Positions 1,858 through 56,694 of a stretch of 64,000 nt of DNA are shown piece after piece. A program made the position numbers and the translations under genes. Under the pieces are notes generated by a model. The model was not told the DNA's origin, made no database searches, and saw only the letters and a list, made by a program, of their open reading frames with translations. Each line of letters starts with the position of its first letter. Positions within the stretch are counted from its first letter, which is position 1. The stretch comes from Rhizaria sp. SCN 62-66 (Eukaryota), in assembly GCA_001724265.1 (NCBI GenBank), contig MEDY01000031.1, positions 1 through 64,000 of the forward strand, in the 5' to 3' direction.

Positions 1858-2171
1858 TTAAAAGGTTTCTCCATCATCACCCGCCGAGACGCTCCTGTCA
1901 TACGCAGACGCCGCCACTTCCCCAGCACGGCTGCCCACGGACTTGTTCCGCGCGTGCACTGACGCCGGCTCCAGCAGCGTCGTCGCGAAGCTCTTGCCGC
2001 CGCCGCGCTCGGGGTTGCTGCTATCAGCGTCGTAGCCGTCGTTGTCGTCGTCATCGTCGTCGTCCTGGTACTCGCCCTCGTCACCCAGAGGGAAGCCGGA
2101 GGACACGCCTGTGGACGTAGGCGACGGCGGCACCTGTGCGGCCAGCGACGGCGACAGCCACTTGCTCGAAC

Positions 2172-2217
<46 letters not shown>

Positions 2218-5200
2218 GGTTGGTGCTGCCGTGGGTGCTACACTCACAGTCGCCGTTGCCACCGCCACGGTGTCGGGCTCTGTGGCCGCGGCGCTGGACG
2301 TGGCGTCCGACGCCGAGAGCAACGCGGGCACGGGCGCGCTGGCAGTCGCCACCGCCGGTGCCGCGGGCGCAGCGGTTGGAACGGCGGAAGACCTCGTCGT
2401 CGCCGTCGCTCCAGCCGCAGAGAAGCTCGATGCGGAGGAAAAGACGGGTGAAAGCAGCGCGGCTGGCTCGCTGGTAAGACCCAGCTCCGTGTCCAGATTC
2501 AGCACCGTCTCGCTGCGCCGCCGCACGTGGAAGCTGTTCGCGGACGCGGACGAGGCCGGCGACACCGCAGCACCGCCGCCGCCGTGGAAGGCAGCGGCGG
2601 CAGCGGCGGAGATGTCGGAGACGGAGTCTGCGCGCGAAAGCCCGGGCCCGCCGTCGCTGATGCCGGCGGTGCCGGGCGGCAGCACGGCGGCCAGCGCGTC
2701 GGGCGCGCCGCCGAGGGTGATGTTGACGTGCAGCGTGGCGGCCGTACGCGCGAGCCGGCGCCGCTGCAGGTCTGTCGGCTTGGCCCACAGCGCGGCGTCG
2801 AGCGTCCACAGCTTGCGGTCGCCCGCCGCGCGCACCGGCGCGGGCACGGTGCCCGGCGGCCCCGCGAGCGGCGTGTGCAGCAGCGCGGTGCGCGACAGCG
2901 GCTGGCCCATCTGCGTGAACACTTCGTGAAGCACCGAACTCAGGTCGACGAACGCGAAGCCGCGCACAGAGTGCTTCTCTTGCTTGGGCTTGTACTGGCG
3001 CAGCTCCATGAAGAGGAAAACCTGCTTCGGCTCGGCTTCGGCCATCAGCGCGGGCGTAGGCAGCCCCATGTTGAGGGCAAGCAGCAGCGGCAGATTCACG
3101 TTGTTGGCCGACGTATGCACGCTGCGCTCAAAGCGCGTGGGCACGGCGCGCGTTAGCTGCACACCTGCGGCGTCGACGAGCGAGAAGACCAACGTTGGGT
3201 CCGCCAGCGCCTTGCAACCCTTGAAGGTGAGCTCCGTCACTGCTAAGAGCAGCGACGGGTACTGCGGCTGCGGCGTAGTGTCGAGCGCAAGCCTGCGCAG
3301 CGGCGGCATCTGCGCGACAGTAAGGCGCCACGCATTGACGCGGTCCTGCAGCGCATCGGCCTCGCGCGCCAGCTCCTCCGCCAGCGTCTTGGTCGCGCGC
3401 ACGGATCGCGCGCGGTGCTCCAGCAGCGCCGAGTGGCTCGTCAGTGACTCACTCAGCGTGGACTCCTGTGCGCGCAGCTGCGCGAGGGACGAGGATAGCT
3501 CCTGCTCGCGCGCCGCCGCCGCCTCTGCCGCGGCTTCCAGCGCTGCAATGCGTGCGCGCAGCGCCACCGCGGTCGCCTCACTCTCGGCCAGCGCCGCTGC
3601 GCGCGTCTCAGATAAGGCCTCGGCGTCCGCCGCATCCTGCTCGGCGCGCCCAGCGCGTTCGGCTGTGGCAGCCGCAGTCGTGCGGGACTCAGCCAGCTGG
3701 ACCTCGATGGCGACAAGCTGCTTCGCGCGCTCATCAAGCTCGCGCTCCGCGTTCGCCAAGCGGGCTGCCATCGACTCGCCCGCCGCGCGCGCAGCACCGC
3801 CCTCGGCCGCCGCGGCCGCCGCTGTTGCGGTTGCCTCGGTCGCGGCCGCGGTCGCGCCTGCACGTTCCACCTCAAGGCGGTCGACGGCGGCGCGTAGCCG
3901 CTGCAGCTCGCCATCGTTTGCCTCGGCAGCAGCGCGCGCCGCTGCAGCACTGACGCGTTCGCTCGCAGCCTCGGAGAGGGCGTGCGCGCGCGTCTCTTCA
4001 GCATGCACCCGCGCCTCCTGCGCAGCGGCTGCAGCGGCGTCCGAGGCGGCCGCAGCGGCTTCAGCGCTCTCGGCGCGGGTCTCGGCGCGAGCAGCAGCTT
4101 CGCGGGCTGCGGAGGCGCTTTCGGAGGCCGCCGCGGCCGCGGACTCTGCACTCTCGGCACGCGCCTTCGCGGCGGCCGCGCGCTCAACGGCGGCAGCCAG
4201 CTGGCCTAGGGCGGCAGCGGCTTCAGCCCGCGCGGCGGTTACACGGCCACGCAGTGACGCAAGGCGGCTCCCAACGGCGGAGGGATTCGTGCAATCTAGG
4301 TCTTCGATGTCGCTCTCTTCGTCCGACATGAGTGCGGCTTCGGCGCTACGCACATCGTCATCCTCATCCTCGTTGTCACCCTCGACAAGCGTCCCCAGCC
4401 CGCCCATGGCCGCCGCCGCCGCCTTGCGACGCGCCGCCAGCGCCTGCGCGTGCCGCGACGCCTTAGCAAACGCTCTTGCCTCAGCGCGCGCTGCCTCAAG
4501 CGCTGCCTCCGCCGCGATCGCGCGCGCCTCGGTCTGCGCCGCGACAGATGTGGCCTCGACCAGCGCAGCATTGAGCTCGGCCGCCTCCAGCTGGGCCGCC
4601 TGCGCGCGCCGCGTCATGTTTGCAACGTCCGCTCGCGCAGCCTCAGTCTCACGGCGCGCGCTATCGGTTTCAGCGCGGGCTGCCTCGGTCTCGGTGCGAG
4701 CTGTCTCAGTTTCGGCACGAGCAGCCTCGGCAGCAGCGCGGGCGGACTCAGCCTCCGCACGCGCAGCCTCAGCATCAGCGCGCGCTGCATCGGCCTCAGC
4801 CCGCGCTGTGGCAGCTTCAGCACGTGCAGCCGCAGCATTTGTGCGCGCGGCTTCGGTCTCAGCAAGCGCAGCATCGGTCTCCGTCCGAGCAGCAGCGGTT
4901 TGCGCGCGCGCTTCTTCAGCGTCGGCGCGTGAGACGGTCGCCTCTTTGCGTGCAACATCCGCGTCAGCGTGCGCTTTCTCAGCGTCCATCTTAGCCGTCG
5001 CAGCCTCAGCCTTGGCCGCAGCAGACTCAGCCTTGGTCACAGCGGCTTCGGCGCGCGCGGCGTTAGCATCCACAGCGGCAGCAGCAGCTTGCTCCTTCAC
5101 AGTCGCAGCTTCCGTACGAGCCGTACTCGCGGCAGCGTTCGCGTCAGCTGCGTCCTTGAGCGCCTCCATCGTCGCCGCCTGCGCCGCCGCGGCCGTGCCC

Positions 5201-8200
5201 GCCGCAGCCACAGCGTCTGCAGACGCCGCGGCCGCTTGGGCACGTGCAGCAACCGCGTCAGCGCGCGCCTCGTCGGCCGCGACGCGCGCCGCGGCGAGCT
5301 CGGCGGCCTGTCTCTGCGCGTCCGCGCCCGTGCGCGCCTCCTCCGCCGCCGCGGCGACCGCAGCAGCCTTGGCGGCCTGCGCCTCCGCCGCCGCAGCAGC
5401 AGCGCGGGCCTGCGCGGCAGCCGTCTCCGCCGCCGCCGCACGGGCCTCGGCACGGACAGTGCGCGCCTCAGCAGCATTGGCGCGCGAGTCTGCGGCGGCG
5501 GCGCGGCCCTCAGCGGCTGTCGCACGCATTTCAGCGCCCGACGAGAGCCCCTCAGCGCTGGCGGCGCGCAGCTCAGCGGCGGCAGCGCGACCCTCAGCGG
5601 CCTCCGCGCGTGCACGCGCCGTGGCGGCCGCGCCCTCGGCTGAGGCAACGCGCGCAGCCTCGACGGCAGTCCTGGCCTGCGCGGCAGCAACGCGGCTCTC
5701 GGCCGCAGCCGCCTTGGATTCCCACACCGCCGCCTGCTGCGCCTGCGCGTGGGACAGCTTCTCTGCGTGCGAAACTGCTGCCGCAGCCGCGGCCGCCAGC
5801 GCGCTTTGCTTCTCCGCGCCAGCGGACGAGGCTGTGAAGTGCTCCGCCGCCGCAGCGTCAGCGCGCGCGTGTGCTGCGTCGCTGCGCGCCTCAGCGTTCT
5901 GCGCGCGTGCCTCGGCCGCAACAGCGCGCACCTCTGCGGCGTCAGCCCGTGTCTCCGCAGCCTCTGCGCGGCGGTCAGCCTCGGCCCGGTCCTCTTCGAG
6001 CCCTGCAGCAACGTACTGCGCGGCCGCGGCGGCGCCACGCGCCTCTCGGTCGAGCTCCTGTGCGCGCAGGCCGAGCTCCGCCGCGCGCGCCTCGGCAGCG
6101 GCGAGCTTCGCGCGCACGGCGGACAGCTGCGTCTCGAGCGCGGCGCAGCGCTCGGCGCACTCGGCCGCGTCTACAACCCCCGCGTCGGTCTGCGTCGAGA
6201 GGCTCGCGGCCGCGGCCGGCGCTGTCTGCGTCTGCATCTGCGCGCTCTCGCGGCCCGCAAAGCGCGCCAGCTCGCGCTTGGCCGCAGCTAACGCTAAATG
6301 CAGCTCGGCTTCGCGCGCCGACGCAAGCCCCGCGGAGTCCTTCCCATCGTCCGTGTCGTCGTCATCGCTGTCGGAGTTGCCAAAAGCGTTGTTATCCGCC
6401 TGCGCGTTCGCAAGCGCTTGCAGGTGCCCCGGCAGCAGCACGGGCTCCAGCGCCGCGCGCGCCGAGCCCGCGGCTGCAAAGAGCGCGACAGCGATGGCTG
6501 AGCTCAGCGCCGGGTCCCAGCGGACCGCGCGCAACGCGGCGCTGCCGGGGCAAAGGTCGCCCATAGGGTCTGCGCGGGCGCCGCCCTCCGCGTCACCGTT
6601 GATATTCGCGGCAGCAGCGCCCGGAGGAGAGCGTGCGCGGCGCGGCTTGATCTTGGTGGCGAAGCGCAGGCCGGCAAGGAGCTCGCGCAGCGCGGCCGCG
6701 GGGTCGCGAGACAGCAGCACGCCACACCCCGCGCCCGCGCCCACCGCGGTCGCGCTGACTGCGGCGGCGCCGCCCGCGGTCGCGCTGACTGCTGCGGGCG
6801 GCAGCGCGGCGAGCGCCGCGGGCGCCGGATCCGTGCCGCCCGTGCCAAGCGAGTCTGCGACGATGATGGCGACGGCAGGCCCGTCCTCGCCCAGCGCGCC
6901 GCGCAGCAGCCGCGTAAGCGCCGACTCGCGGTACGCACCGCCTAGTGGTTCCGCGCCGGCGGCGAGTGTCCCCAGCACGCCGAGTAGCGTCGACAGCGTG
7001 CGCGCGCCCGAGCCCGCGGCGCCAGAACCAGAGCCGGGCCCCGCGGCGATGCCCAGCGCGGCGGCGGTGACGGCGGGCGAGGCTGGAACGCAGTGCGCGC
7101 CCGCGGATGGCGGCAGCGCGGGGTAGGGGAACGCACCGGCGCCCGCCACGCGCGCTGTCGCGGCGGGGCGTGTGTGCGCGGGCGACATGGCCGCAGTGGC
7201 GGCGGCGACGCCCGCGCCCGCCGCGCCCGGCCGGCCCACGGCGACTGCGGCGGCGGGCAGGTTGGTGCCGTGTGAGGACGACAGCAGCGCGTTGCCGGCG
7301 GGGCGCGCGACGGCCTCTTGTGGCGGGAGCGCGACGAGGTGCAGCTGCGACGCGCAGAGCAGGGCGCCGTCGCGCGCGCGCAGACGCTCGAAGTGCAGGG
7401 TAAGCACGACCGAGCCCACGGCGGCGAGCGCGCGCGCGCGCGGAGTGGTCGCGGCGGCGACGGCAGCGGCGGCGTCCTCGGGCGACGCCAGGCGCGCGCG
7501 CGAGAGACCCTCGGCGTAGCTGGCGCCCGAGGCGAGCTGCCGCAGCGGGCAGCGTGGCGGCGGCGCCGGGTGGCCGCGGCCCGCCGCGCCCCGCGCGCCA
7601 GCGCCCGCAGCGGCGCTGGCGGCGTCTGCGAGCAGGTCAAGCGCGGACGCGCCGCTGCCGGCGCCCGCGGCGGCCGCGGAGGGCGGGTCGAGCAGGGCGG
7701 CGACGGAGACGGACAGGCGCAGCGCCAGCGCAGGCGCGCGCCGCGGCAGCAGCGCGGCCAGATCCAGTGCGTACTGCAACGTCGCGGGCACCAGTCCGCG
7801 TTCGCCGCAGCCGCTAGCGTTCATGGTAACGGCGTGAGAAGTGGCGTCTGCATGAGCATTCGCATTCGCGGGCGCGGGCGAGCCCCAGACCGCGCGGTCG
7901 CGGCGCGGGTGCGCGGCGCCGTAGAAGAGCACGGACGCGGCGGGCGCACCGGCGAGCAGCGCGGCGTCGCAGAGCGGCTTGACGGCGTGTGCCCACAGCG
8001 AGCGAGCCGCGGCGGGCCGCGAGAGAGGCGGGAAGAATGCGTCGGCGCGGAATGGCGGGCAGCCGGGCGCCGCAAACGCAATCAGCGGGCCCGTCGCCAG
8101 CCCGCGCGCGCGAATCAGGGGCCCATTCAGCCGCAACAAGCCGCGCGGCTGCGCGCTCGTCCCGTCGCTTTCATTGTTATCGTCATCGGACGAGTAGATG

Positions 8201-8493
8201 TGTGCGCCCGAGAGCTCGCACAGCTCGAAGAGCGCACCGGGACCGGTCTGGATGCCGCTGACAACCACTGCAAAGGGGTCGTGGCCGGGCAGGCAGCGTG
8301 TGACCGGCGCGGTGGGCGCGTCAGGCGTCTGGGGAGGCGAGAGCGCAAACGCGGACGTGTTGGTGTTAGTGGCAGGGCTCGACGTGGAGGACTGCGTCGA
8401 CAGGCGCAAGGGCGTCACGGGGGCAGCGAGCGCAGCAAAGGGCTGCACAAGGACGCGCTCGGCGTCGACGAGCAGAGCGTCAAAGTCTGACAT
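1858..8493 (-). CDS. Degenerate kinesin-motor-like domain + long coiled coil + C-terminal AIDA-type C2 domain (2211 aa)
   Basis: Single ORF ending TAA. Kinesin scaffold motifs in order (VLFYGA, GLVPATL, YAEGLS, SQLHLVAL, YRESALTRLLRGALG, LRFATKIK; ~6640-8100). Ala/Glu/Arg coiled coil ~3330-6300. AIDA-C2 motifs DPTLVFSLVDAAG, FMELRQYKPKQEKHSVRGFAF, LWAKPTDLQRRRL (~2715-3260). Confidence 0.8.
2173..2217. repeat. (GTC)n trinucleotide microsatellite, poly-Thr in the minus-strand CDS
   Basis: Directly visible run of GTC units with one interruption. Confidence 0.9.
4630..4930 (-). repeat. Degenerate 21-bp (7-aa) tandem repeat within the coiled coil
   Basis: Translation AAARAEA-ATARAEA-DAARADA-EAARAEA-ESARAAA-EAARAET-ETARTET-EAARAET-DSARRET; heptad periodicity. 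Boundaries approximate. Confidence 0.7.
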
Positions 8494-9200
8494 GCTGGGT
8501 CAGGCGCGGGGCGAGACCTGCGCTTTCTAAAGCGCGGGCCTTGTGATGCGGGTTGAGAGGGCGCGGCAGAGAGGGGAGCAACAGCTACGTCTAGTCTGCT
8601 ATACCACCTTTGACAGACAAGATATCAAACAAACATAAGGTTAACCATGAAGTAAAATACCAATACAGTGAATATGGCCCCGTAAAACGTGAGCGTGTTT
8701 CGAACTATGATGATCTGCGAGATTTCACAAGGAGGCCTGCTCAATCTTCAGTTGCAGAACTTTTGCAAGCTATTTCTCCATGACCGTATCGTCGCCGAGT
8801 GTGTAATAAGGAATGAAGAAAAAAACTACATCGATGATCATAAATGGTAAATTACACTCATACTGGTAGCGTTCTTGGCAGACTAAAGGTGAGTGATACT
8901 CCTTTGATGTCGGAGTGCGGTTTCGGCCTGTCCAACGAAATAGGCCGGAGTTAGTGCGAAGTTTGGGTCAATATGTGTATTAGAAGGGTTTCGTGACGTT
9001 TCTGTTTCAAGTTTACAAAACAAGTCAACCCGAGCGAACACGTGGCCATATCGTGCTTGTGCATGTGCGGGCTGCACTGTGCGCATCTTCAATTCTATTC
9101 GATCTGTGTTTGACAGTGGCAGCGGCGAGCGACCGCAATGCTTTGTGGTGTTGCTGCGTCCTCTACTGTGCGGGGGCAGCCATCGGCATGGTCTGCGCAC

Positions 9201-9934
9201 TCACGCAGCAGGTGCGGTGCCCTGCGCGGCGGCCTCCGCGGTCTGCGAGTAGTTCTCCGAGGCCGGAGAGACGTTGCCGACGTTCTCGGGGCCGAACGAG
9301 TCGGGCAGGATGTCGGCCATGGTGGAGCGGCGGACCTCGGAGCCGTCGCCGCGGGTGAAGACGAGCGGCACACCGGGCGCAAGAAACTCGCGCAGGAACT
9401 GGCGGCACGCGCCGCAGCACGAGCCGCCGTCGCGGGTCGTCACCGCGACCGCCTGGAAGCTGCGGTAGCCCGCGCTCACTGAGAGTAGACAGACGGGAGC
9501 AAAAGTGGGTGGTGGTGATGTGAGCGAACAGATAATGCGATGACAAGTGAGAGAGGACAGGGACAGTGCGGTGGAGAGATGGGGGACGGCCGAAACCAGG
9601 CGGAAACGTACCGGCAGAGACGAAGGCGGAGCGCTCGGCGCAGATGGTGAGGCCGTAGGAGGCGTTCTCGACGTTGGCACCACCGAACATGCGGCCACAG
9701 GAGGTCACGACGGCGCAGCCAACCTGCAAAGACAGGGGGAGATATAAAACAAGCTGAGTGAGCACGGACCGAACATGTATATACAGTAGAGCAACATATA
9801 TTGGCGACCAGACCCGAGGTCTACGAAGTCGAGTGAGGGGGCGGAATCTTGCAGTGAGGGCGTACCGGGTACTTGCTGTAGGGGCAGTAAGCGTTGTTGA
9901 AGCTCTTGACAGAGAGAGCAATGAGCTCATCCAT
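9201..9934 (-). CDS. CDA: Cytidine deaminase, homotetrameric type (3 exons, 152 aa)
   Basis: Exons 9934-9866, 9723-9612, 9478-9201 give MDELIALSVKSFNNAYCPYSKYP|VGCAV...GANVENASYGLTICAERSAF...|...SCCGACRQFLREF...ILPDSFGP. The AYxPYS, NVENASY, CAE and CGACRQ zinc motifs are present. Stop is TGA. Confidence 0.95.
9479..9611 (-). other. Spliceosomal intron 2 of CDA
   Basis: GTACGT...CTCTCAG, phase 1; splicing joins conserved CDA motifs in frame. Confidence 0.9.
9724..9865 (-). other. Spliceosomal intron 1 of CDA
   Basis: GTACGC...TTTGCAG, phase 0; restores the YSKYP-VGCA motif. Confidence 0.9.
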
Positions 9935-12336: not shown

Positions 12337-15300
12337 TCAGATACTGCGCATGGGCTGCGAGCCGTGCTTGTAGACGGACCAGAGCCGCTGCACCTCGGCA
12401 CTCAGCGATGCGACCTTGGCGTTGAGCTCATCAATGCGTCCTTCACTGCTAGCGCCACTGCTGCTGCTCGCGGCGGCGGCGACCGACGCGGCGGCAATGG
12501 CCGCGGTGAGCCCGCGCGGGCTGGCGGCGGCGGCGGCGACAGCGGAGCTGGCGCGCTCGTACCGGTCGCGCGCGGCCGCCGGGTTCAGCGGCTCGCGCGA
12601 AACGCCCCAGCGCGCGGGCTGCAGCGAGCGCGCGGCGCCAGGCGGCGGCGCGGGGGCCAGGCTCGCGGCGGCGCCCGACGCGGCGGGCACGGGCGCGGCG
12701 ACAGCGGCGGCACTGATGGGGACACCAACCTCGGCGCCAATGCCGCTGTCGACGTCGTCGTCGGCGTCGCTGTGGTCGCTGCCGCACGCGGCCTCAGAGG
12801 CGGCCTCCAGCTCCATGATCTCGAGCACGGCGGACCGCAGCTCGCTTGCGCGCTGGCGGAACGCGAGCGCGTTGGACCGCTGTCGCCGGCCCTGACGCTG
12901 CAGCCACTCGCGCGCCAGCGTGCGCGCCGCGGCCAGCTGCGTCGCAGTCGGCCGCTCGCCGGCAGTCGCACAGCAAGCAGCGCTGCACGCCGCTGCCGCA
13001 GCGCCATCCTCCTTGGCGGGAGCAGCGGCTGCGCCAGCAACAGTTGCAGCGGCAGCAGCAGCCGCACCGGCGGCGGCGGCGGCGGAGCCGAGCTTCTTCT
13101 TGGTGCCCGCGAGGCCGGTGCCGGTGCCCAGGCGCGCAAACACGTCCGCGACGTCGTCCTCGGTGTAGACGCGCCCGTGCTCCAGCGCGGCCACGTCGCT
13201 CGCGGGCACAGGCGGGGGCGCCGCGGGGGCCGCGCCAGCCTTGACCGCGGCCGCGCGCGCTGCGGCGTCGCTCACGCCGGCAATGAGCGCGGTGTTGTGC
13301 GCGGCGCGGCGCAGCAGTGCGCGGTAGCAGTCGAGCGGCTCGTTGAAGTACGGCCCCTGCGCGGCGGCCGACGTCACAGCGCGGCGCGTAACGGGCGCTT
13401 CGCTGGTGTACGTCGCGGCCTCGACCGCGGCCGCGGCCTCGGCGGCGGCGTCAGAGCCGGGCGCGGCGGCCGAGGCGCGGCGCAGCAGCCGCAGCGTGCG
13501 CAGCCCGGCGCCGCGCTCGGCGGGCAGCGGCGTCTCGAGCCCGTGGTCGAGCGCGGCCGTGCTTACCGTCGCGGCGCCGCGCGAGCCGCCGCGGCCCGAG
13601 GGCGAGAGGCGGAAGCGCACAAGCAGCAACACGGCCTCGAGGAAGTCGGCACGCACGGAGCCGACGTCGCTGGGCGGGTGCGCGGGGTCGCAGCGCTGCA
13701 GAATGTTGTCGCGCAGCTGCAGCAAGTCCCCCACGCGCAGCGCGCAGAAGCGCCGCAGCGCCGCCAGCAGCCCCGCCTGTAGCGCCTGGATGTAGGGCTC
13801 GGAGAAGGTCACGGGCAGGAACGCCTCGAGCATCGACACGACGCGCATCGCGTTGGGCACGTGCCGGAACGCGGTCCGCAGCCGGAGCGCGGAGCCGGAG
13901 CGCGTGAGCGCAGTCGTCGCTGCCGCCAAGGCCGCGCGCGCCGCCGGCGAGTGCGACGGCGCCGCGCTCTGCTGCGTGGGCGAGAGAAACATCGACTGCG
14001 ACTGTGATGGAGCTTGCGATTGCGATTGCGGCTACGATTGCGATGTCACAGCGCCTGTTGCGGCGCTATCGTCTGTCTCCGCGTGCGTCGCCAGGCGGCT
14101 CCCCGCTGCGTCGATGTACGCGGGCACGGCGACGGGCGAGAGCACCACCAAGATCGGTGCGTCGCGCGAGGAAGGCTCTGAGGTCTGGCCAAGCGGCGCG
14201 AGCAGAGACTGCGTCAGCTCCGGCTGCGCCTGCGAGCCCACCGTGCCGACAGAGTCCGCGCCGGCCCCGGCAGCGGCGCTGGCGCCAGCAGCGGCGGCGC
14301 TTGCAGCAGCAGCAGCAGCAGCAGCAGCGGCCGAGGGCACGGGCACGAGCGAGAGGTCAGCCGCGGCCAGCGCGGCGGCCACGTGCGCCGCCGCGGGCGC
14401 GCCGACTTGCAGTGACAGCGACTGCAGCGGCGCGCTCCCATCAGAGGAGTTGGCATCGACACTCGCAATCGCACTCGCATTCGCGCTCGCGGTCGCGTTC
14501 GCGATCGTGCCGTTCTCGCCGCTCTCACGCGCGGCTTCGCAGTCGGTCATCGCGACCTGTCCAGCGACGGCGTTAACAGCGCCGAGGTTGCTGCCGCTGC
14601 CGGTGTGATAGACGCGGAGCGCGGAGGCAGACTCGAAGCCCCACTTGGACACGCGCACGAGCGCGCGGTCGAGCCGGCGCAGGTACCCCGCGGCCGCGGC
14701 GGGCGCGATGCACACGGCGCCGTTGTCCAGCGCCACGACGTCGACGACCGTGCGCGGGGCCGAGTCCGCGGCGGGCGAGCCAGAGAGCGCGGCGGATGGC
14801 GCGCAGGTCGAGGCCGCGGCGGTGGACGCGGCTCCGGATGGCTGCACAGACGGGACCGACAGCGCGGCCGACGGGGGTGATCGCGCCCCCGGTGCGGCGT
14901 TCACCGAGGCTGTCACCGAGGCTGTCGCCGCAACGGGCGCACGCGCTGCGTGCTGCGGCAACGTGGACGCATGCGAGGACGCGTGCGCGTGCGGGCGTGG
15001 CGTGAGCATCAGGTTGCCCGGATTGCCGAGGTTGTCGGCCACGAACGGCAGGCGGTCTGTGTAGTTGCAGAGCAGGTCCAGCGCGACGATGGCGCCTATC
15101 TGCTGCATTACGGATTCGCCTTCGGAGCGCGCCGCGGGTAGCCCCGCCACGGGCCGGTGCCGCTCGCAGCGCGGAGGGAACGGCGCGTCGGCTGCCAGCA
15201 GCGGCACGTGCGCGTCCGAGTCTGCCGCAGCGGCGCTTGTGTTCGTGGGGTCCCAGCCGGCCGGCGGCTGGAAGGGCGGCAGCGGGCGAAACCAGCGGCG

Positions 15301-15827
15301 CAGGCGTGCGGCGAAGGCGAGGTCGCCGGGGACGGCAGTGAGCACGCGGCCGCGGAGGTACTCCATCAAGATGACGTAACCCTGTCGAAGCTTGCCAGTC
15401 ACTTCGACGCCCAGCGCGTTCTGCGCCTCCGTCAGCGCCGACATAACCTCGGGACGCTCGGCCTTGCGGAAGAAGGTCATTACGGGCGCGCGCACGCCCA
15501 AGGCGGCGGCCAGATGAGTGGCGAACAGCTCGCCCATGAGCTGGATGGTGCCCTTAAGCACGACAGCACCGGGCTTCGGTCCTCCGAACTCGACGAACAC
15601 GACGCCTAAACAAGGCAAGATTGAGGCAATAACAGAATTGTAAGATGCAATAACGCATATAATTCACGAAACAGAGACGTATGCGTGTTATGGTAAGACA
15701 TACCTTGACTACCCTCGGCACTTTGGCCAATTCCAACAACATGGTTCCAGTCCAGGTCGTCGATGTCAGCTACGGGGGCGCATGAGAAGTCAAAGGCGCG
15801 GTAGACTCGTTCGGCCGGGGGCTCCAT
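12337..15827 (-). CDS. Actin-fragmin kinase (AFK) catalytic-domain protein, ~1130 aa, with one in-frame TAG at 14032-14034
   Basis: Exon 1 15827-15704, exon 2 15605-12337. AFK-like motifs SAEGSQGVVFV, VVLK, ELFATHLAAALGVRAP, ILMEYLRG, MQQIGAIVALDLLCNYTDRLP, GNPGNLML, VALDN lie before the TAG. AFK C-lobe-like helices (IQALQAGLLAALRRF, VRADFLEAVL) lie after it in the same frame. Terminal stop TGA. Confidence 0.85.
14032..14034 (-). other. In-frame TAG codon (candidate sense codon)
   Basis: TCG CAA TCG TAG CCG CAA TCG CAA TCG CAA; frame is open on both sides. Confidence 0.8.
15606..15703 (-). other. Spliceosomal intron of the AFK gene
   Basis: GTATGT...TTGTTTAG, AT-rich, phase 1; joins EGSQ-G-VVFV. 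Confidence 0.85.
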
Positions 15828-17325: not shown

Positions 17326-20300
17326 TTAGTTGCGATCTTGGCCCCGCACGCTGCGACGACGCCCACTTGCGTCAAAAGTCGACGCGGCGTCAGCATCAGC
17401 CTCAGCTTCAGCCTTGCCAGCAGGCGCGGCCGTCTCCGCGACCGCCTCTGTTGCGGTCGCCTGCGCGGCACCAGCCTTGTCAACCTTGCCCTTACCGGGC
17501 GTCTTGGCAGGAGTACTCTTCTTGGTGCTCTTGTTTGATGCGGCGGCCGCGGGGGCAGCGGGGGTGAAGGCCTCCGCCTCAGTTTCCGCCTCCGCAGACT
17601 CGGCGGAGGTGGGCGCAGCGGTGGCAGGAGCGGGAGAGGTGTCGACCCCACTGCGGCGCGTGCGGGCGTTGGTTCGAGGCGCAACACTGTCTGCCTCCGC
17701 ACTCGTCGCGCCATTCTCGGCCTCAGCAACAGGCACAGCCGCGGCCGCATCAGCAGCAGGTGCGACATTGTCCTCAGCGGCCGCATCGGCGGACACCGCC
17801 TCAGCATCGGCCGCGGCGTTCGCAGCTGCTGCCTCCGCGGCGGCGCGCCGAGCTGCAGAGGCCGCGGCGGCGCCTCCAAGCTTACGGGGCTTGGCGGCCT
17901 GGGCAGCCTGGGCCTTCGGCGGCAGAGCAGCATCCGAGCTTTCGTCAGTCATCGCTGCACCCGCAGCGCCCGCCTTCTCCAGCGCATCCGCTTGGGCGGC
18001 ATCATTGGCGGCAGCTGCCTCCTTAGCGGCGGCGGCTTTCTTGGCTTCCTGCGCAGCCTTCGCGGCTTGGGCGGCCTTGGACGCCTTAGAAGCCTTGCTG
18101 GCCGGGGTCTTGGCGGGCTTCACATCATCCGCCGCCTCCTCCGCCGCCGCCTCAGAGCCGGCTTCTGCAACGGAGCTTGCTACGCTCGCGGCAGCCTCGG
18201 CAATCTTAGCGCTGTTCTTGCCGGAAACCCTGAGCGGCGGCGCGGTCCCCGAGACCTCGGCTGCCACGGCTGCCCGCATTTCCTCGAACGAGAGCCCCGC
18301 ATAGGGGTCTGCCTCGGGCGGCGGGATCACCGGCGACGGCAACTCCGCCCACTGCGCGCGCGCGCGCTCGACGTTGCGCTCCAGACCGGGCAGCGTGTGC
18401 GACACGAAGTCGGGGAAGGCTAGCACCGCGTCGGAGAGCGAAACGTCTTCCTCTTCCTCCGCAGCAGCAGCACCGTCCGCTGCGCCCGCGGCGGGACGGG
18501 CACGCTTCACACGCGCCGCGCCGTCTTCACCATCCTCCTCGTCGTTCGCGACGGCGGAGGCGGCACCCGCGTTCTTACCGGCGGCGAGCGCGGCGCGGCG
18601 GCGGGCGAGCTGGCGCGCGATAGCGTCGTAGAGCTGGCCCTCGGCGGCGAGCTCGCGGACCGGCACTTCCAGCTCGCCGGCGCGCACCTGCAACGACGGC
18701 GCAGACACGTGGTACGGCGGGCCCGGCAGCAGGCGAGGCTCGCGGATGGCCGCGTGGCCAGTCTCGGTGCCACGCGGAATAACGCCACTGCCCAGGCGCT
18801 TCTTGATCGTGATCGTCAGCGGCATCGCGGGCGTCGCCAGCAGCGGCGCGTAAATACGGCTCAGCGCGTTGTCGCGCAGGCGCGCCGGGCCCTCGGCCAG
18901 CAACTCGCCCCCGCCCACATTGAACGACTGCGCCGCCGAGCTTGGAAGCGAGGCTCCGCTGGCGCTCGCATTCAGGCTCAGGCTAGCATCCGCGGACTCC
19001 TTGTCACCGTCATCGCCAGCAGATGAATTGCTGACCTGCTTATTAGCGCCAATCATGACTTCACCACTGCTCGGCGTCGCTTGAGCGTCTCCACTCTTCT
19101 TAACGGCATCGGTTTCCTTCGCAGCAGCGTCATCGTCGTCGTCGCCGTCGCTGCTGGAGAACTCGTCCTGGCAGTCGGAGCCCATGAAGTTGAGCATGCG
19201 AGCCGAGATCGTGTTGATGCGCAGCGTCACGCGCGGACCGCGCGGGAGTCCGTCGCGTGGGTCCAGCGGTGCCATGTCCACGGAGATCGGTGTACTCTCA
19301 TCCGCGTCGCCACTTGCGTCAAGCTCGGCGGGGGCTTCGGCGGCGGCAGCGGCCACGGTTGCAGCCTCAGCGGACGCAGCGTCAGCCGCACGCGTCGCAG
19401 CGCGCTCCGCGATGCGCTCTTCGCGGCTACGCGTGGCGTTTGCGCGCGCGGCCTCGAGGGCGCGCTCAGCTTCTTCGCAGGCCGAAGTCAACCCATAGCG
19501 CGCGGGCGCGTTGGGCGCGCGCGTGAAGGGCAGCGTAAGACGCACGCCACCCGCAGAGCGGAAGACGGGGTGCAGCGGCTCATTGTTCCAGCCCAAGTCG
19601 TCGACCGATAACACGTGCGATACGAGCGCGCGACCCGGCTGAGCCATGAATGCTGCGAACATGCCGCCTCCCACACTCTTAAAGGCGTTGCCGTAAATCT
19701 TTCGTTTCGAAAGCATCGCCGCAAAATAGGAGACCACGTTTGCGCGCACTGATAACTCGCCACTCGGATGCACCTGAGTACGTTCCTGCAGTTCAGCGAG
19801 GTTGGACTCAGCGTTTTCAATGGACTCTGCAGCTTCATCATCAATGTCAGTGTCATCTTCAGAAGTGTCACTGTCGTCACTGAGCGCGGCAGCGGCTGCT
19901 GCAGCCGCTGCCGGGCGCCCACGCGGCCTCGGACGCGCGTTCTCGGAGGCCGCGGCACTGGCGGGCGTGGCAGCGAGTGGCGCCGCCTGGTATGCGAGCG
20001 CAAGAGCATGGTTACATTTCTAGAACTCGCGGCGCTTCTCGGCGCTGACTTCCGGCGGGTAGGCGCGCGACTGACAGTTGACTGGGTCGGCGCGCTGGCA
20101 CTGCTGGCAGTAGAAAACCTCCAGGTCGCACTCGGCGGCGGCGATGGTGAGCCCCACGCAGCGCGGGTGGAACCAGCGCTCGCAGGGACCCTCGCAGCCG
20201 AGCAAGTGGTTGCCGTCCTCGGAGATGAGCAAGTCGTGCACGTCCACACTCGCATCAGTGACCTTGACCAGCTGCACGCCGCTGCCCTGCGAGCCGCAGA

Positions 20301-23300
20301 TGCAGAAGGAGGCCGCATCCTCGATGCCGGCCGCACCGGCCCCAGCCGCTTGCCCGCCCGCGCGCGCTGCCATGTGGCCTCCACGCGCTCCGCCGCGGCC
20401 GCCGCGCATCGCGCTGCGCTGGGCGGTGCGCGCGGCGTCGTTGTGGACGCGCGCCTCGACCTTGGTGATCGCGGCGTCGAGCGCGCGCCAGCACTGCTGG
20501 ATGAGCTTGCTCTTGGCGGGGTCGTTGGACTCTTGCGCCAGTGCCGCAGCGCGCGCCGCAGATGAATTGACCGAGCTGGCCGCGAAGAGCTGCTGCGCGG
20601 ACACGTACGGCGTCGTCGAGCGCACGCGGTAGCAGTACGTCGTGCCGCCCACGTACGGCACGCCAGCGGCGGCCGCGGCGGCGCGCGTTTCCTCCTCGTC
20701 GTCGCCCACCGCGGAAGCGGCGCCGGTGGCGGCAGTGGCGGCAGTGGCGGCAGTGGATGCGGTGGACTCGACTGTGTAGTCAACGCCGGGACCAAAGATT
20801 TGCGGCGGCAGTGGCACGCCCATCGCCATGAGCTGCACCTGCAGCAACCCGGGGCCGGCGTGGGCGTTGCCGATACCGGGCCGCAGCGCAGCGGCCGCGG
20901 CGGCGGCCTGCGCAGCATGGTCGGACGACTCGATGCCGTAGTTCATCGCTGTGGCCGACGCAGCCGCAGTTGAGCAGGTCTGCATGCAAGACAGCAAGGC
21001 ATGTGACAAGTTTTGCTGGATGCGCTGCAGCACTGGCGCCGGCGGGACAACCACGTTCGACAGCGGCACAGGCGCAGTGCCCGGCGGGGACGCCACGGCA
21101 GGCGGCGCAGAACCGGGCGGGGCCATTGACTCGGGCAGCGGCACGCTATGCGTGCGGTGGAGCTGCTGCGCGTGCTGTTGCTGCAGCTGCGTCAGATGCG
21201 CTTGCTGCTGGCGCTGCAGTTGTTGCGCGCGCGCGTACTCAGCGTAGGCCGTCAGGACCGCGGCCTCGTGGCGCCGCTGGCGCTGCATGGCGGCCATGCG
21301 CGCAGGCGGTGACCGCAGCGCAGGGGCAGCGTTGCCGCTCATGGTCGCGGCGCCCATGCTGTACTCGCTCATCCCAGTCGTCGCAATGTTGCCTACAAGC
21401 AGGTTGTACAGCGCGCGCGCACGCGCCTTGTTGTTGGCGAGCGTCTGCGCGTTGAGCTCGCGGTGCAGAAGCATTAGCTCGCACGACACCATGTCGACGA
21501 CGGTGCCACCGCCGAGGCTGATCGAGGCCGACGTCGTCGCACTGCCCGCGGGAGTCACAGCGCTGTCCTCAACCAAGGTGCTCACAACGCGCGCCACTTC
21601 GCGCACGCGGTCGTGCTCCGCCTCGACGACCAAACGGCCGCCGACACTCGTCAGCGTCTCGGCGCGCGCCAGCGAGCTCACGCCTGGAGTCGCCGCCCCC
21701 GCGGCCGGGAACGGCAGCACGTAGCGCTTCGCCTTGAAGCGCTGACACATCTCGACGATGTCGTGCGTCGACGGAATACGCGCACGTGCGCAGAAGGCCG
21801 TTGCCAGCGCGGCGGCCGCAATGCGCACGCGGCGGCGGATAAGGCGGGAGAGAGCCTCAACGCGGCCACCGCTCTGCGTAGCAAAGGAACGCAACAGTGC
21901 AGTCTCGAAGGTTGCCTTGATGAAGCTCACGTCGGCGCCCGCGAGGCCACCAATGCGCGCATTGATGGCGTCAGAGCCGACGGAGCCTGCCAGCGCAGCA
22001 CCGTGGGCGCCACCGGCAGCGACCGCCATCTGCATCGCGGCGCCGAGCGGCAGCGGGCCGTGCACCCACCAGTAGCCGGGACCGAAGGCGTGCAGCGCGG
22101 CCAGCGGCGGCAGCGGGTGAAGCGAGGGCGGGTGGCGCAGCGCAAGGCTCTTGACACGCAGCGCCTGCAGCACCGAGTGCGGGCCCGGCGCAACAAGAGG
22201 CACCGCGTCGGTGACAAGGCCGGAGCCAGTGACGGCGCCTGCGATCGCGGCGGGCTGCGAGGCAGCGACGCCAGCGGTCTGCCGCGCCAGCGCCTGGAAC
22301 ACGCTCACGGGCTGGAGCACCGTGCCGGGCACGTACTCGAGCCCCGGCGCGGGAGACGCGTCGCTCTCAAGCGAGACAACAGCACCTGAGCCGGTGGCGA
22401 CGGCTTCGAAGCTGACCGCAGTGGCAGTTTCAATCGCGTTCACCGTGCGCTGAAGCAGTTCGAAGGCCGTCTTGCGCCAAGGCGCACCGTGAGGGCCAGG
22501 GTCGAGAGACGCGATCAGGGCAGCCGCCTCGCGCGCGTCACCGTTTGCGGGCGCGGCGCCAAGTCCGAACACGGGGCGTAGGGCAGCGGGCACGCAGTCG
22601 CGCCACAAAGCGGGCTCATTTGCGGTGCCCAACACAGCAGACGCCGCCGAGAGCGCGGTGGTCACGGTCTGCGAGGCACTGGCCGGCAGCGCGATAGCGC
22701 CTCCGACGCTGCCATCAACCATGGCCGTTGCTAGGCGAGCGCGCTTGGTGTCCTCAGGTCCGACCGTAGCCGGTGACCGCTTGATCTGAGCAGTGGCGCT
22801 GTGCTGGCGCTGCCACATGCGCTCGACAGCGGCGGCGCCCTCAGCCAGCGTCACGAGCGGACTGGTATTCGCACCCAGTGCGGCGGCCGCGGCGGGCGCA
22901 GAGGCCGCGGCTACGGACGACGACACGAGGTGGCTGATCACGGCAGACACACAGCCGGAAGCCGTGGCCGACACCGACGGCAGCGTGCCCTCGGGGTTCG
23001 CGGCGGCCTTCTCGGCGATCACGGCGGTCTCAGCGCGCGCGCGGCCGCGGGCGAGCGCGGCAGAGGCAGCGACAGAGGCACGAGTGTTGAATGCCGTGGT
23101 GCGCGCCGCTGCGGCAAAGGCGGCCCAGCGCAGTCGACGCGGGCTCAGAAGCGCTTCGAGCGCGCGAGGCAGCATCGGACCGGAGCGGCGCGCATGAGTG
23201 ATCGGCGCCATCAACGCACAGACGTGCGCGAGCGACGGCAGGTAGCAAACGCCATCCTCGGCCGCGGTGGGCACAGCGGGGTCTTCATCCTCGTCTTCGC

Positions 23301-26300
23301 CGCTGTCGTCGCCGTCGTTAGTGTCGTCGACGGCAGGCGCACGCACGCGGCCGAGCCAGCGCGCCTCCAGCGCAGCGCTCTCGCTCTCCACGGCGTACAT
23401 GGCGACCGTGAGCGCGGTGCGCGCGGCCTCGGTGGTGACGGGCTGCGGCGTGATTGTGAGCAGGATGCGGCGCATCGCCGTCTCCACAAGCGCACGCGCA
23501 CGCGCCACGTAAGTGGACGAGTACGCGCGCTCCGTGAGCAGAGCGCGCACGCCCGCGTCACCGCCCGTGCCCGCAGTCGTGCCAGGGGCGTTGGGCGCGC
23601 CGTACGCGCGCGTGTGCGCGTTCGCCAAGCTGAGAACATCGGTCGCATTGTCCACGAGGCTGCCACACAGACCCGACTTGGGCCCAGAGGCGGCAGCGAC
23701 GGTCGCGGCGGCAAGAATGCTCGGAGTGGTCCCTGGGGCGACACCGGGTGCCGAGACGGCGGGGAAGATGGACGGGCAGTACACGTGCAGCGCCTCGGGC
23801 GCGGGCAGCGGCAGCGGCGGTGCGGGCACCGTCAGCGCAAAGCGGGAAGTCGGCGCGGGCAGCAGCGCGGAAGGCACGTCGCCGGCGCCAGACTGGAGTG
23901 CCGCGACAATCGTAGCGGCCTCATCAGCGCTGAAGACGTGCGGGAAAACGCTAGTGCGGGGCTTGCGCTCGCGCTTGATAGTCGGCTCAACCTTTACCTC
24001 GGGCTCCACTACCTCAAGCTGGGCAGTGGATGCGGTTGCAGAAGTCCTGACACCGGCATTTGGGCCCGAAGATGTGCGCGCGAAAGCAACCCAACGTGGC
24101 TTGACGTTAGCGAACCCAGGAGCGGGCTCGTAGACGACCTCGACCGCACCGGCAGCAGTGCCGTATGTGTTCGCGCCGCCGGCCTTAAGCGCACTGACGG
24201 CGGCGTCGGCAAGCGTGCCGTTGCGCGCGTCAGAAACGGAGCCGCCGGCTGCGCACGCGGCAAACGCGCCAGGTGCGAGGATTGTGTTGGGCGCCTGCGA
24301 GACCTCGATGCCCGCTGCGCGTGAGCGCTCCAGAGAAGACTGCGCAGCGGAGAGCGCGGCAGCGGCAGCCGTCGAGCCCGACACCTCAGAGGCCCAAGGC
24401 ACGGTGGCAAGCGACACTGCGTCGCCACCCTGCGGCACGGGCGCCGTGAAGGGCGCAGTGACGACAGTGAGCGCCTCACCGGGGATCTGCGCCGAGGACA
24501 TGACGTGCACGACAGAGCGTGCGGCGCCGCCGAGGCAGATGAGGTCGTCGTCGACCTGGTCCTCGCGCGGGGCCGCGCCCGTGGCGGCGGCTTCCTCACG
24601 CGCACGCGCCACGGCAAGCGCGCGCTCGGTGGTGACCGTTAGCACGCCTGCCGCGGCCGCCAAGTGCGTGGGGTGGGCAGTGTCGAGCACGGCGTCCACG
24701 AAGCCCTCGGCCGCGGTCGCGCTGGCAAAGGTCGCGCCGGCGGACTGAGCTGCGGGCGCCTGCACGGGCGCGGGCTGCACAGAAGGCAGCGCGGGCACCT
24801 GCAAGCCCGCACCGAGCGGGACGAGCGACTTGAAGACGGGCAGCGCCGAGTCGAAGCGCGACGCCGTGGCGATGGCCAGCGGCTCGAAGTTCAGCAGCGC
24901 GGAGTAGCTCGTCGCGGCCGTGCTCGCAGACGCGCCTGCACCAGCGGAGGACGAAGACGCAGATGCAGAAGCAGAAGAGGACAAGGCAGCAGGAGTGGTC
25001 ATGGACAGCTTCCTAGAGGCAGTCGTGTTGGGCAGCGGACTTGTTGGGGGCTCAATCTTGACCTTGACAGGCGTGCCAACAGTTCCCACGGGCCGGCTAG
25101 CGTCGCTGGTGCTGCTCGAGCCATCGACGTAGTCGAGCAGGGCGTCGCCGGTGAGCGCAATAATGCCAGCGGAGGGATCAGACCCTTCGGGGCCGTCCTC
25201 GCCTTCGGAGCCGTCATCTTCGATGATGTCGCGCCGGTTCGCAAAGCCGCCACGGCCGCAGCCACGACCGCGCCCACGACGCTTCGAGCTGTTACCGGTG
25301 CGGCCGCGGGTACCACTCCCGGTACTCGGGCGCCCGCCACGGCCGCGGTTGCGCGTTGAGTCCTCGTCGTCCTCTTCCTCCTCGCCTTCTTCATCGTCCT
25401 CTTCGTCCGCGACAGCGCGCGCGGAGCTTGCGCTGGGCTTGGGCGGCGCGGGCAGAGTGTTGGCGCGGACGCCGCCGCCGAGTCCGCCGATGTCCTTGAC
25501 GGCGTCGTCGGCCTCGTCCGTGCCGACCGTGGACTCGTCCTCGGCGCGCACATACCACGGCACGGCCGACCAAGTCGGCTCTGCGAAGATGCCCATCAGA
25601 CGCGGCTTGGCGCCCGCCACGGCGGCGACGCCCGTGTCGTCGTCGTCGCCGGCGTCGTCGTCGCCTGCCACGGCGGCCGAAGGCGCGCCGGAGAGCAGGT
25701 TCGCCGACACGGGCGCCAGCGCTTCCTCGCCGCCCGTCGACTCGTACACCATCGGCGGAAACACCCACCGCGAGGGCTCGTTCACCGTCTGCAGCGCGCT
25801 GGGGTGCGTCGGCAGCGGCGCGCGCTCCAGCAGCTGCCCCGCCGCCGCGGAGCCTTCCTCGGTGGCAGAAGCAGCAGTGTCGGTGGCAGCGGCGGCGTTG
25901 GACTCGGCCTTGACAGCGGCAACCTGCGCGAGCGCGGCGGCGCCCGCCGTGGCGGCGGCGGTGAAGGTGCCAACGCTGATCTGCGACGTGATGTACGAGT
26001 AGTTGGACGACGCCAGTGTCGCCGTGGGCAGGATCTTGGCCGGCGGGACGTACGCGTACGTCACCGACACGTCGCCCAGCGCGGGCTGTAGTGAAGCGGC
26101 CGCCGATGCGGTCTCGGTGCCGGGCTCGCGCTTGACAGCCGCAGAGGCGGCGCCCTTGGTGACCTTCTTGTGGGCAGCGGCATCCGCAGCTTCAGCAGCG
26201 GTGCGGCGCGCGACGGCGTCGGCGACGGGCTGCGGGAAGATGAATGCCGCGGGCACGGGGCTGGTGGGCGCGACCTCGTCCAGGCCGTTGGGCGCAACGG

Positions 26301-50322: not shown

Positions 50323-50876
50323 CTAAAACGAATTTGTGACATTTATTTATTACGTGATCCAACCTAACCATGGTTATTCTACTCAATATACATACAAATA
50401 CTGCATTACTACACTGCAGTTCGCCACTTTGTCTTCATCAACTTGCTTCTGACCACAAATGCATTTGCTGTTTGGCTGACCAACCAAAGTCAAGGGCCGT
50501 TTTTGGGCGATCACTAGAGTGACACATAGTCCGTTACTTCGTGACTACTGATCATTTTCTATATAAATTCTTTATGATCTACGTCTTTGTTTCATAATTC
50601 TTCTAGAAACCTTGATTTCCTCTCCGTACGCGAGCTTTTCACATCACATCCCTCCTTCCCAACTTCCGCCTTCTATTTTACTCGACTATTCCCCTCTATC
50701 TTCAACCCACCACGCTCAGCGTCTTCCAGAGCTTAGGCTCACAGAAATAGCCGCTCTTACACATCTACCGTCATTGTCACAAGGCACAAACCGATCTCTA
50801 AGCGTTCTGTTTGATCCTGTAACTCCCCGAGCTTGCACATAACTCTAACCACTCCAACAGTACAAAGAACTCTACG

Positions 50877-52095: not shown

Positions 52096-52620
52096 GTGCG
52101 CTTGCTAGTGAGAGGTGGTGGTTCAGAGTATGCTGGATATGCTGGACGCAGGCCAGGAGTTGTTTGTTTTGAGTCTGTATATGCGCTCTGGTGAAGAGAT
52201 ACACCACTATACATGAGATGACTACATAATACACATTTGATTCTCCAACTTATGTGTGGTATTCTTATCTATGATATTCCGGAACATGTCATGCCTTGAT
52301 CTAAATTTGATTGTGGTGAGGATGACTTTGTCTCCTTAATCCCTGTCAGCGACGTAGGCAGAGGGCTATCACAAATCCGATGTCATGTGCCGATCGTCAA
52401 ATGATTTACACGTATGATTGTGTATAACAGCGCTTACTATTGTATCCTTGATCTTGTTATGCATGTGCAAACACCCGTTACAGTCGTGCATATTGGTCGT
52501 ACTTTCGGTATGCCCAGATTCCCATCCACTTTTTTTCTCACGCTGTTTATGTGCTTCTATCACACTCATCAGCCTCCTCAATTTCCTTACCTCTATTTTA
52601 AACTACCACTATTTGTACAG

Positions 52621-54860: not shown

Positions 54861-54926
<66 letters not shown>

Positions 54927-56044: not shown

Positions 56045-56694
56045 GAAAGCTTGTGTGAGCAACACGTGCGATGAACGCAAAGGTGACGCGGCGGCCACGA
56101 TTTCAGGCACAACAAACACGGTCTTTACTTGCTGAATGGTTCATTATGAGATTTTGTTTCCAACCCCACTGTTGGACAGTGCGGTTTTGCGTAGGACGAA
56201 CGTAATGGCTGCATGACTGTTACACGCACTCCTCTTGTCAGCCTGTTTAAGTTTCATTCTGATGTGACTAAAGTGATTCCAAGTTGTTTATTTTAATTAT
56301 TCATTTTATAATACATGATGTACCTCTATATTACGAAATGACCGTTTGAAGTGGTGAAATGTTGTGGTACTAGCTCAATTTCTGTCCCACCACAACCGTT
56401 TCGACAAACAATGATTGGACAAGCCCATGCGAGATTGGATAATGGGCAGGCCTGCACACCTCAAAGAGACCGTTAACTCATATTACCTGCGTGTTCCTTA
56501 TTTAGCACAGCATTTTGTGCGTATGTTCAAATTTGAGACCCGTCTAATGTCCTCTAATGGTGTCCTTTATCCTCCAAACTAACACCTCTTCCACTTCTTC
56601 TTCATCCACTAAATGCTACCATATATCAGACCACAACAGCTCAGGAAGACGTGATACTACCTAAATATAGACACATTGAAGTTTCACGGGCGAG

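Follow-up and report, generated by a model that had tools for sequence, protein, structure and literature searches.

What kind of protein would combine the head of a kinesin with a C2 domain of the AIDA type? This question is raised by a long open reading frame (ORF) on the minus strand, at positions 1858-8493 of contig MEDY01000031.1 (assembly GCA_001724265.1, Rhizaria sp. SCN 62-66), of which the first 64,000 nucleotides were analysed here and are referred to as the window. A first-pass annotation of this DNA described the product as a pseudo-kinesin that is fused, via a coiled coil of about 1000 residues, to an AIDA-type C2 domain. In our analysis this division into three parts is upheld, with a kinesin-like head that lacks nucleotide-binding motifs, a long helical rod and an AIDA-type C2 domain. 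Six motif strings were looked up in the translation and all are present, namely FYGAAHPRRD at residue 190, AVGSVVLTL at 358, ALPPQE at 388, YRESALTRLL at 521 and, for the two C2 signatures, RQYKPKQ at 1832 and LWAKPTDLQRR at 1902.

The AIDA-type C2 domain

Aida_C2 (PF14186) was the sole Pfam family found on the whole protein at E-values up to 10. The match covers residues 1747-1857 and profile positions 13-114 of 146, with an E-value of 1.1e-9 and a score of 38.5 bits, which is above the cut-off of 25 bits. In a phmmer comparison, the domain matched PDB chain 2qzq_A, a solved AIDA C2 domain, with an E-value of 3.5e-4. Residues 10-113 and 121-150 of this chain are covered, as two collinear pieces, and the alignment to PDB entries 2qzq/2qz5 takes in both signature stretches, RQYKPKQ and LWAKPTDLQRR. 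The single-sequence AlphaFold2 model of residues 1705-1935 was mostly beta, at low confidence (predicted local distance difference test score, pLDDT, of 42.6). When this low-confidence model was used as the query for Foldseek, ranks 1-3 were taken by the AIDA C2 crystal structures 2qz5_B, 2qz5_A and 2qzq (E-values of 6.8e-6 to 6.8e-5; template modelling scores of 0.54-0.62, normalised to the target), and PI3K, CAR4, NEDD4, PTEN and other C2 domains followed at lower ranks. The AIDA-type identity of the C-terminal C2 domain is therefore confirmed by a profile, by a residue-level alignment over both motifs named in the annotation and by a fold search.

The helical N-terminal domain of AIDA was not found by Pfam in the whole protein at E-values up to 10. 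We therefore consider that the C2 domain is shared with AIDA, and that the protein itself is not an AIDA orthologue.

The kinesin-like head

The gathering cut-off of the Pfam Kinesin family (PF00225, profile length 327) is 29.3 bits. For the whole protein of 2211 residues, Kinesin was not listed by Pfam at E-values up to 10. When parts of the head were used as queries, the match always fell on residues 498-543 and profile positions 257-301, and this is the only stretch that is recognised as kinesin by a hidden Markov model (HMM). The E-values were 0.16 for residues 1-720 (11.4 bits), 0.066 for residues 331-640, 0.025 for residues 490-640 and 0.005 for residues 490-560 (71 residues, 16.3 bits). 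Profile positions 257-301 correspond to the α4-L12-α5 region of kinesins, which faces the microtubule. A PDB search with the fragment of residues 490-560 returned 19 matches, 13 of which were kinesin-1 chains, aligned over their residues ~256-300 with E-values of 0.46-1.7. The stretch contains YRESALTRLL, which had been annotated as a retained microtubule-binding motif of kinesins; its region does match PF00225 at positions 257-301, but below the cut-off and with E-values of 0.005-0.16.

Further evidence comes from a method of another kind, a search of the ESM Atlas with protein-language-model features. For residues 41-670, 27 of the 30 neighbours were kinesin clusters (best value 0.92, with 170 shared features and a recognition of 2956). 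In a control with residues 41-420, which leaves out the Pfam-matched stretch, all 30 neighbours were kinesin clusters (0.90-0.91, 158-163 shared features, recognition 2738). For comparison, in the calibration of the Atlas a recognition of 2300 was reached by 9 of 100 shuffled proteins, and 170 shared features are typical of true family members.

The motifs that kinesins use for nucleotide binding are absent. A regular-expression search found no Walker A pattern ([AG]xxxxGK[ST]) in the whole protein, the sole GK[ST] being located at residue 2166 in the tail, and the switch I and switch II patterns SS[RK]S, DxxGxE and D[LIVM][AS]G occur nowhere in the protein. This bears out the annotated loss of catalytic motifs. 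The stretch-by-stretch equivalence that had been proposed along with it, in which FYGAAHPRRD, AVGSVVLTL and ALPPQE occupy the positions of the P-loop, switch I and switch II, is a different matter, as no alignment program (Pfam, PDB) placed these stretches on a kinesin; this equivalence would follow from order, spacing and the kinesin consensus. If the head is a kinesin, its sequence implies that it is catalytically dead: with the P-loop and both switch motifs lost, ATP would be neither bound nor hydrolysed by the head in the reading that we propose.

Other collinear stretches also appear to resemble the kinesin consensus. In the right order, these would be the surroundings of FRADAFF at residue 148, VLFYG just before residue 194, GLVPATL at 233, a strand-turn-strand at 358-393, TLSTLLGVL at 499 and LRFATKIK at 609. 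LRFATKIK may resemble the end of kinesin α6, and presumably belongs to the last helix of the head; the corresponding fragment search found no match. Likewise, Pfam gave no kinesin match for the P-loop-like, switch-like, α6-like and N-terminal head fragments. The composition of the head is unusual, with 20-31% Ala and 7-13% Pro, and residues 400-520 contain 31% Ala, 17% Gly and 10% Pro.

The rod

Residues 730-1700 include only 2 Pro in 971 positions and consist of 41% Ala, 12% Glu and 10% Arg; in the first rod segment, Ala accounts for 45% and there is a single Pro. A heptad pattern is present at the levels of both DNA and protein. The rod DNA contains imperfect 21- and 42-nucleotide tandem repeats, equal to one and two heptads, and the charged residues show a periodicity of 7.0. 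Pairs of opposite charges in the first segment are over-represented at i+2 (z 6.3) and i+5 (z 5.5), and not at i+3 or i+4 (z 0.8). An enrichment at i+2 and i+5 is the spacing of g-e' pairs between chains, unlike that of a salt-bridged single helix. A reading of the rod as a single α-helix is disfavoured, since the opposite-charge pairs at i+3 and i+4 that it calls for are not enriched.

At the best a/d register, 83% of the core positions of the first segment are Leu, Ile, Val, Met, Phe (LIVMF) or Ala. Windows with LIVMF at half or more of the a/d positions are more frequent in the second segment (15 of 42) than in the first (6 of 81). A two-copy complex prediction for residues 1490-1725 scored 0.02 and gave no verdict. 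To judge from these sequence patterns, the label 'coiled coil' is reasonable but unproven. Rather than one coiled coil of about 1000 residues, as had been annotated, the protein contains two heptad rods (residues ~735-1325 and 1395-1715) with an acidic break between them.

The rod and the missing motifs together bring to mind Vik1 and Cik1, which, like KIF26, have ATPase-dead kinesin-like heads. The protein might similarly be a non-catalytic partner of an active kinesin, pairing through its rod with the stalk of the latter, in which case the complex would be motile and the C2-bound membrane would be its cargo. A head in which the nucleotide motifs are all absent and the microtubule-face stretch is kept does resemble the motor-homology domains of such partners, and a heptad rod is present for pairing. 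However, there is no known partner kinesin. A kinesin domain occurs in none of the 19 other ORFs scanned in the window, which contains no paralogue either. Moreover, the head of Vik1 and Cik1 is C-terminal, whereas it is N-terminal here. We therefore regard a partner of this type as quite unlikely.

Is the head derived from a kinesin?

The searches for relatives had a uniformly negative outcome. No relatives were obtained in word-index searches, in which 8000, 1196 and 2447 candidates were scored for residues 1-720, 1715-1925 and 490-560, respectively. No match, not even the protein itself, came out of an exhaustive phmmer search of 1.84 billion representatives with residues 1-720, and two scans of metagenome contigs gave 61 and 454 pattern matches, none of which was confirmed as a relative. 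The exact protein is absent from a collection of 15 billion proteins, in which five of the eight neighbouring ORFs that were looked up are present letter for letter.

Several observations weigh against a kinesin-derived head that is joined by a coiled coil to the C2 domain. The Pfam Kinesin cut-off was never reached, the best score being 16.3 bits as compared to 29.3, and the E-value improved only by trimming the fragment after a first match had been seen. Of 14 other head fragments, 11 had no Pfam match of any kind, and the remaining three matched only zf-dskA_traR at chance level (E-values of 0.05-0.19). Neither the whole head nor the switch-region fragment had a kinesin match in the PDB. 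With the fragment of residues 490-560, the other six of the 19 PDB matches were chains of an unrelated herpesvirus DNA-binding protein, and these ranked above the kinesins. The number of features that residues 41-420 share with their Atlas neighbours is below the 170 that are typical of true members, and in the Atlas calibration one third of the shuffled proteins also obtained 10 out of 10 matches in one family. The single-sequence AlphaFold2 model of residues 41-670 had a pLDDT of 35.3 and was mostly coil plus helices, with no kinesin-like sheet, and Foldseek returned nothing for this model at E-values up to 0.001. The core of the rod is mostly Ala, with LIVMF at only 14% of the a/d positions in the best register of the first segment and at 29% in the second. 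Lastly, as there is no relative in any collection searched, conservation of the head, or selection on it, cannot be demonstrated.

The low-confidence head model, obtained from a single sequence, and the empty Foldseek search that followed from it are best considered uninformative: the fold prediction by which the annotation was to be checked gave no usable fold, and so speaks neither for nor against a kinesin.

The negative results could be explained if the N-terminal 620 residues were not kinesin-derived at all. They would then be a fast-evolving, largely disordered region rich in Ala, Pro and Gly, in which the motifs arose by chance, and the protein would be a rod with an AIDA-C2 domain, for example a membrane-anchored scaffold or a golgin-like tether. 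Such a region would account for the lack of a Pfam match at or above the cut-off, for the 0 matches of the whole head in the PDB and of its sequence among the 1.84 billion representatives, for a model of coil and helices without a sheet, and for the high Ala and Pro contents. However, three different methods converge on one family out of thousands, and the order of the motifs was stated beforehand in the first-pass annotation. Furthermore, the Pfam HMM and the kinesin-1 chains match at a collinear place, kinesin neighbours were obtained in the Atlas with two queries, the second of which leaves out the residues that the HMM matched, and both recognition values (2956 and 2738) exceed the value of 2300 that 9 of 100 shuffled proteins reach. 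This view of the N-terminal region is therefore unlikely, and we consider that the head probably descends from a kinesin. Of the two HMM matches that the annotation led one to expect, the one to Aida_C2 was obtained at 38.5 bits, above its cut-off of 25, and the one to Kinesin remained at 16.3 bits, below its cut-off of 29.3. The kinesin-like head thus has sub-threshold Pfam matches and its Atlas neighbours in its favour, and it has neither a match at the cut-off nor a predicted fold.

Gene structure and transcription

The ORF has the coordinates that had been annotated. On the minus strand, it extends from an ATG start codon to a stop codon at 1858-1860 and comprises 2211 codons in a single exon. 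For this base composition, the probability that 2211 codons stay open by chance has a log10 of -14.7, and the longest open run observed in 200 base shuffles was 630 codons. Because long shadow ORFs arise in DNA of this composition, all six frames were scored for codon usage with a codon table derived from two nearby genes in which Pfam domains are present. Minus frame 0 obtained the top score in all five segments (whole ORF, head, rod, C2 and tail). The opposite-strand ORF at 3008-7126 (plus strand, 1372 amino acids) was rejected as a shadow of the GCN-rich codons, with a lower codon-usage score and a nonsense translation rich in Ser, Ala and Arg. This plus-strand ORF of 1372 codons is antisense to the rod and could mislead gene callers.

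The content of guanine and cytosine (GC) in the window is 67-78% in coding DNA and 35-55% in spacers, and the contrast between coding and non-coding DNA is sharp throughout. There is no intron-like GC dip inside the ORF, where no 100-nucleotide window falls below 60% GC. Windows below 60% GC are present at both flanks of the ORF and in both verified introns of its upstream neighbour.

Parts of the stretch are contained in three public runs, the labels of which describe them as community libraries from activated sludge and wastewater. With 0-1 differences, contigs from a polyA RNA library (X1) match the ORF region in eight listed pieces, all located between 1574 and 8099. These contigs are in agreement with transcription of the ORF, although contigs are no proof of it. 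No single RNA contig spans the whole ORF, and the polyA run has no cover over 8256-9137. No believable splice joint was found inside the ORF in the RNA-library contigs, the only canonical joints being those of the two introns of the upstream neighbour. Joints that were reported inside the ORF have sides of 20-23 nucleotides and non-canonical ends; we take them to be low-complexity cross-matches and do not consider them as evidence. Accordingly, the RNA contigs give no indication that complementary DNA would split the ORF, as might have been the case for the annotated fusion, yet none of them spans it. A (CGT)15 microsatellite at 2173-2217 encodes the run of 13 Thr residues in the tail, and positions 2167-2232 were omitted as a repeat in read mapping. 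A spike in read depth at 1788-2081 was seen in all three runs and probably represents low-complexity cross-matches.

The repeats in the ORF could indicate that the gene is decaying, or that it is not translated as one protein. It would then be a former kinesin-C2 gene that expands, under relaxed selection, through slippage at alanine codons, and its head would have no present function. This would be consistent with the tandem repeats of 21 and 42 nucleotides and the triplet microsatellite within the ORF, with the extreme Ala content, and with the absence of the exact protein from the 15-billion-protein collection that holds five of eight neighbouring ORFs. On the other hand, 6.6 kb are open as compared to at most 630 codons in the shuffles, codon usage is gene-like in every segment including the head, polyA RNA-library contigs lie on the ORF, and the C2 domain is well preserved. 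We therefore judge decay to be very unlikely. The gene is real, has a single exon and belongs to an uncultured, GC-rich, intron-bearing eukaryote.

Features of the protein and their positions in the window. Residue numbers refer to the product of the ORF.
Feature	Residues	Position	Strand	Basis
Whole ORF		1858..8493	-	Codon usage, GC profile, shuffle test
Kinesin-like head with Ala/Gly/Pro-rich inserts, without nucleotide-binding motifs	~70-620	6634..8286	-	Atlas neighbours, sub-threshold Pfam
Stretch at presumed P-loop position, FYGAAHPRRD, GK[ST] absent	190-199	7897..7926	-	Order and kinesin consensus
Strand-turn-strand, AVGSVVLTL to ALPPQE, at presumed switch I-switch II position	358-393	7315..7422	-	30-residue spacing
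Ala/Gly/Pro-rich low-complexity insert between switch II-like stretch and α4-like helix	~400-495	7009..7296	-	Composition, pLDDT <50
Kinesin-profile-matching stretch, includes YRESALTRLL	498-543	6865..7002	-	Pfam PF00225, PDB kinesin-1 matches
Likely last head helix, LRFATKIK at 609	601-617	6643..6693	-	Position only
Rod segment 1, Ala-rich heptad repeats	~735-1325	4519..6291	-	Composition, repeats, charge spacing
Rod break, acidic, Gly-containing	~1326-1394	4312..4518	-	Sequence, composition
Rod segment 2, more Leu/Val at core positions	~1395-1715	3349..4311	-	a/d windows
AIDA-type C2 domain	1742-1927	2713..3270	-	Pfam, PDB alignment, Foldseek
46-residue insert within C2	1855-1900	2794-2931	-	PDB alignment gap
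Ser/Thr/Ala/Pro low-complexity tail with 13-Thr run and Asp run	1928-2211	1861..2712	-	Translation, composition

Genomic setting

The upstream neighbour is a small gene at ~9200-9900 (minus strand) with two GT..AG introns of 133 nucleotides (9479-9611) and 142 nucleotides (9722-9863). In a single RNA-library contig (run X2, record 14), 9478 is joined to 9612 and 9721 to 9864, so that both introns are skipped. Since both are spliced out in this contig, the DNA derives from a eukaryote whose genes have spliceosomal introns. Long ORFs without introns and the strand blocks of the window would also suit a pattern of the trypanosomatid type, which is ruled out by the two GT..AG introns that are joined in RNA. 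By eye, the exons of this neighbour contain Cys motifs that may be zinc-deaminase-like; Pfam gave no match for its last exon alone.

The genes of the window are arranged in strand blocks, on the minus strand to ~42450, on the plus strand over 43156-59853 and on the minus strand again from 60586. No Rfam families or tRNA genes were found in the 64-kb window. A 501-residue ORF at 14032-15537 (minus strand) has a partial match to the catalytic domain of actin-fragmin kinase (PF09192, E-value 1.5e-7, residues 139-185). A single ORF of 3379 codons occupies 20020-30159 (minus strand), and its Pfam match is a C-terminal PHD finger only. The neighbouring PHD-finger protein at 30283-34614 (minus strand, 1443 amino acids) belongs to a 90%-identity cluster with three variants from other contigs (1241, 1244 and 1247 amino acids). 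These length variants in one cluster indicate that close strains or sister species are present in public assemblies. Lastly, a single ORF of 2388 codons at 43156-50322 (plus strand) has no Pfam family.

Proposed function

How might a protein of this layout work? In the explanation that we favour, the head descends from a kinesin motor that would have lost its P-loop and both switch motifs and kept its most recognisable sequence in α4-L12-α5, the region through which kinesins contact the microtubule. Such a dead head would hold microtubules without cycling. The C2 domain of AIDA binds lipid, and the C2 domain of the present protein, with both basic signature stretches kept, would hold a membrane of acidic phospholipids. 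The two-piece helical rod of ~900 residues, with its Ala core, would set the distance between head and membrane, which by simple arithmetic (~0.15 nm per residue) might amount to ~135 nm if the rod is fully helical. A tail that is presumably disordered would end the protein. Microtubule binding, lipid binding, dimerisation and the role of a tether are all properties that we infer. Taken together, a head that derives from a kinesin and is ATPase-dead, a C2 domain that binds lipid and a long rod between them would make the protein a static linker between microtubules and membranes, and we place this explanation just on the probable side.

A bolder proposal, which appears possible but rather doubtful, is that the protein represents an undescribed class of pseudo-kinesins from a protist lineage that has not been sampled by genomes. 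Members of this class would be permanent microtubule anchors with an Ala-core rod of ~135 nm and an AIDA-type C2 domain, and would serve as spacers of fixed length, for example at the ciliary base or in a cortical array. If the reading as a static linker is true, the protein would join the few motor domains that have been reused as static binding modules, and a kinesin-type head would for the first time be connected with the AIDA-C2 membrane module. The reach of these conclusions will be narrow until orthologues are found, as the source is an uncultured eukaryote and no relatives of the protein could be detected.

Comparison with known systems

With the kinesins, the present protein has in common an N-terminal head, a long heptad stalk, a cargo-type tail, a sub-threshold collinear match in α4-L12-α5 and its neighbours in the Atlas. 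It differs from them in having no P-loop, switch I or switch II, in its long Ala/Gly/Pro inserts and in a Pfam score below the cut-off. With AIDA, it shares the C2 domain, as judged by profile, pairwise sequence and fold search, including both basic signature stretches. The solved C2 chains of AIDA comprise 152-155 residues as compared to 2211 residues for the whole of the present protein, in which the C2 domain carries a 46-residue insert and no N-terminal domain of AIDA was found.

We found no literature on the combination of a kinesin-type head with an AIDA-C2 domain, in a search that covered neither supplements nor the survey in which AIDA-C2 was defined, where such a combination may be shown. 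Those who described AIDA-C2 considered that a role in cilia or centrioles would suit its domain architectures and its phyletic pattern (PMC3495828).

A layout that is similar in outline is known from the orphan kinesin KIN-E of Trypanosoma brucei. As described by An & Li (2018; PMC5993322), this flagellar protein combines a kinesin head and a coiled coil with beta-sandwich domains that resemble domain III of m-calpain. In contrast to the present protein, KIN-E has conserved P-loop residues and an active head, and its beta-sandwich domains were modelled on calpain and not on AIDA (PMC5993322). No sequence relation between KIN-E and the present protein was found. We regard KIN-E as a functional analogue and not as a relative.

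A parallel for the C-terminus is offered by the heterokont myosins XXXI, the tails of which end in Aida_C2 (Sebe-Pedros et al. 2014; PMC3942036). The first-pass annotation, in which AIDA was given as normally a small protein with a helical N-domain plus C2, is therefore too narrow on where AIDA-C2 occurs, and the combination of a cytoskeletal motor with this domain is not unprecedented. Myosin XXXI and the present protein have in common a head of the cytoskeletal motor type and a C-terminal Aida_C2. Myosin XXXI differs in being an actin motor, presumably an active one, and in having IQ, PH and ankyrin domains in its tail instead of the heptad rod found here. If the reading of the present protein as a kinesin-derived linker is correct, the layout of a motor head with AIDA-C2 would have arisen not just with an actin motor, as in myosin XXXI, but also with a head of the microtubule type.

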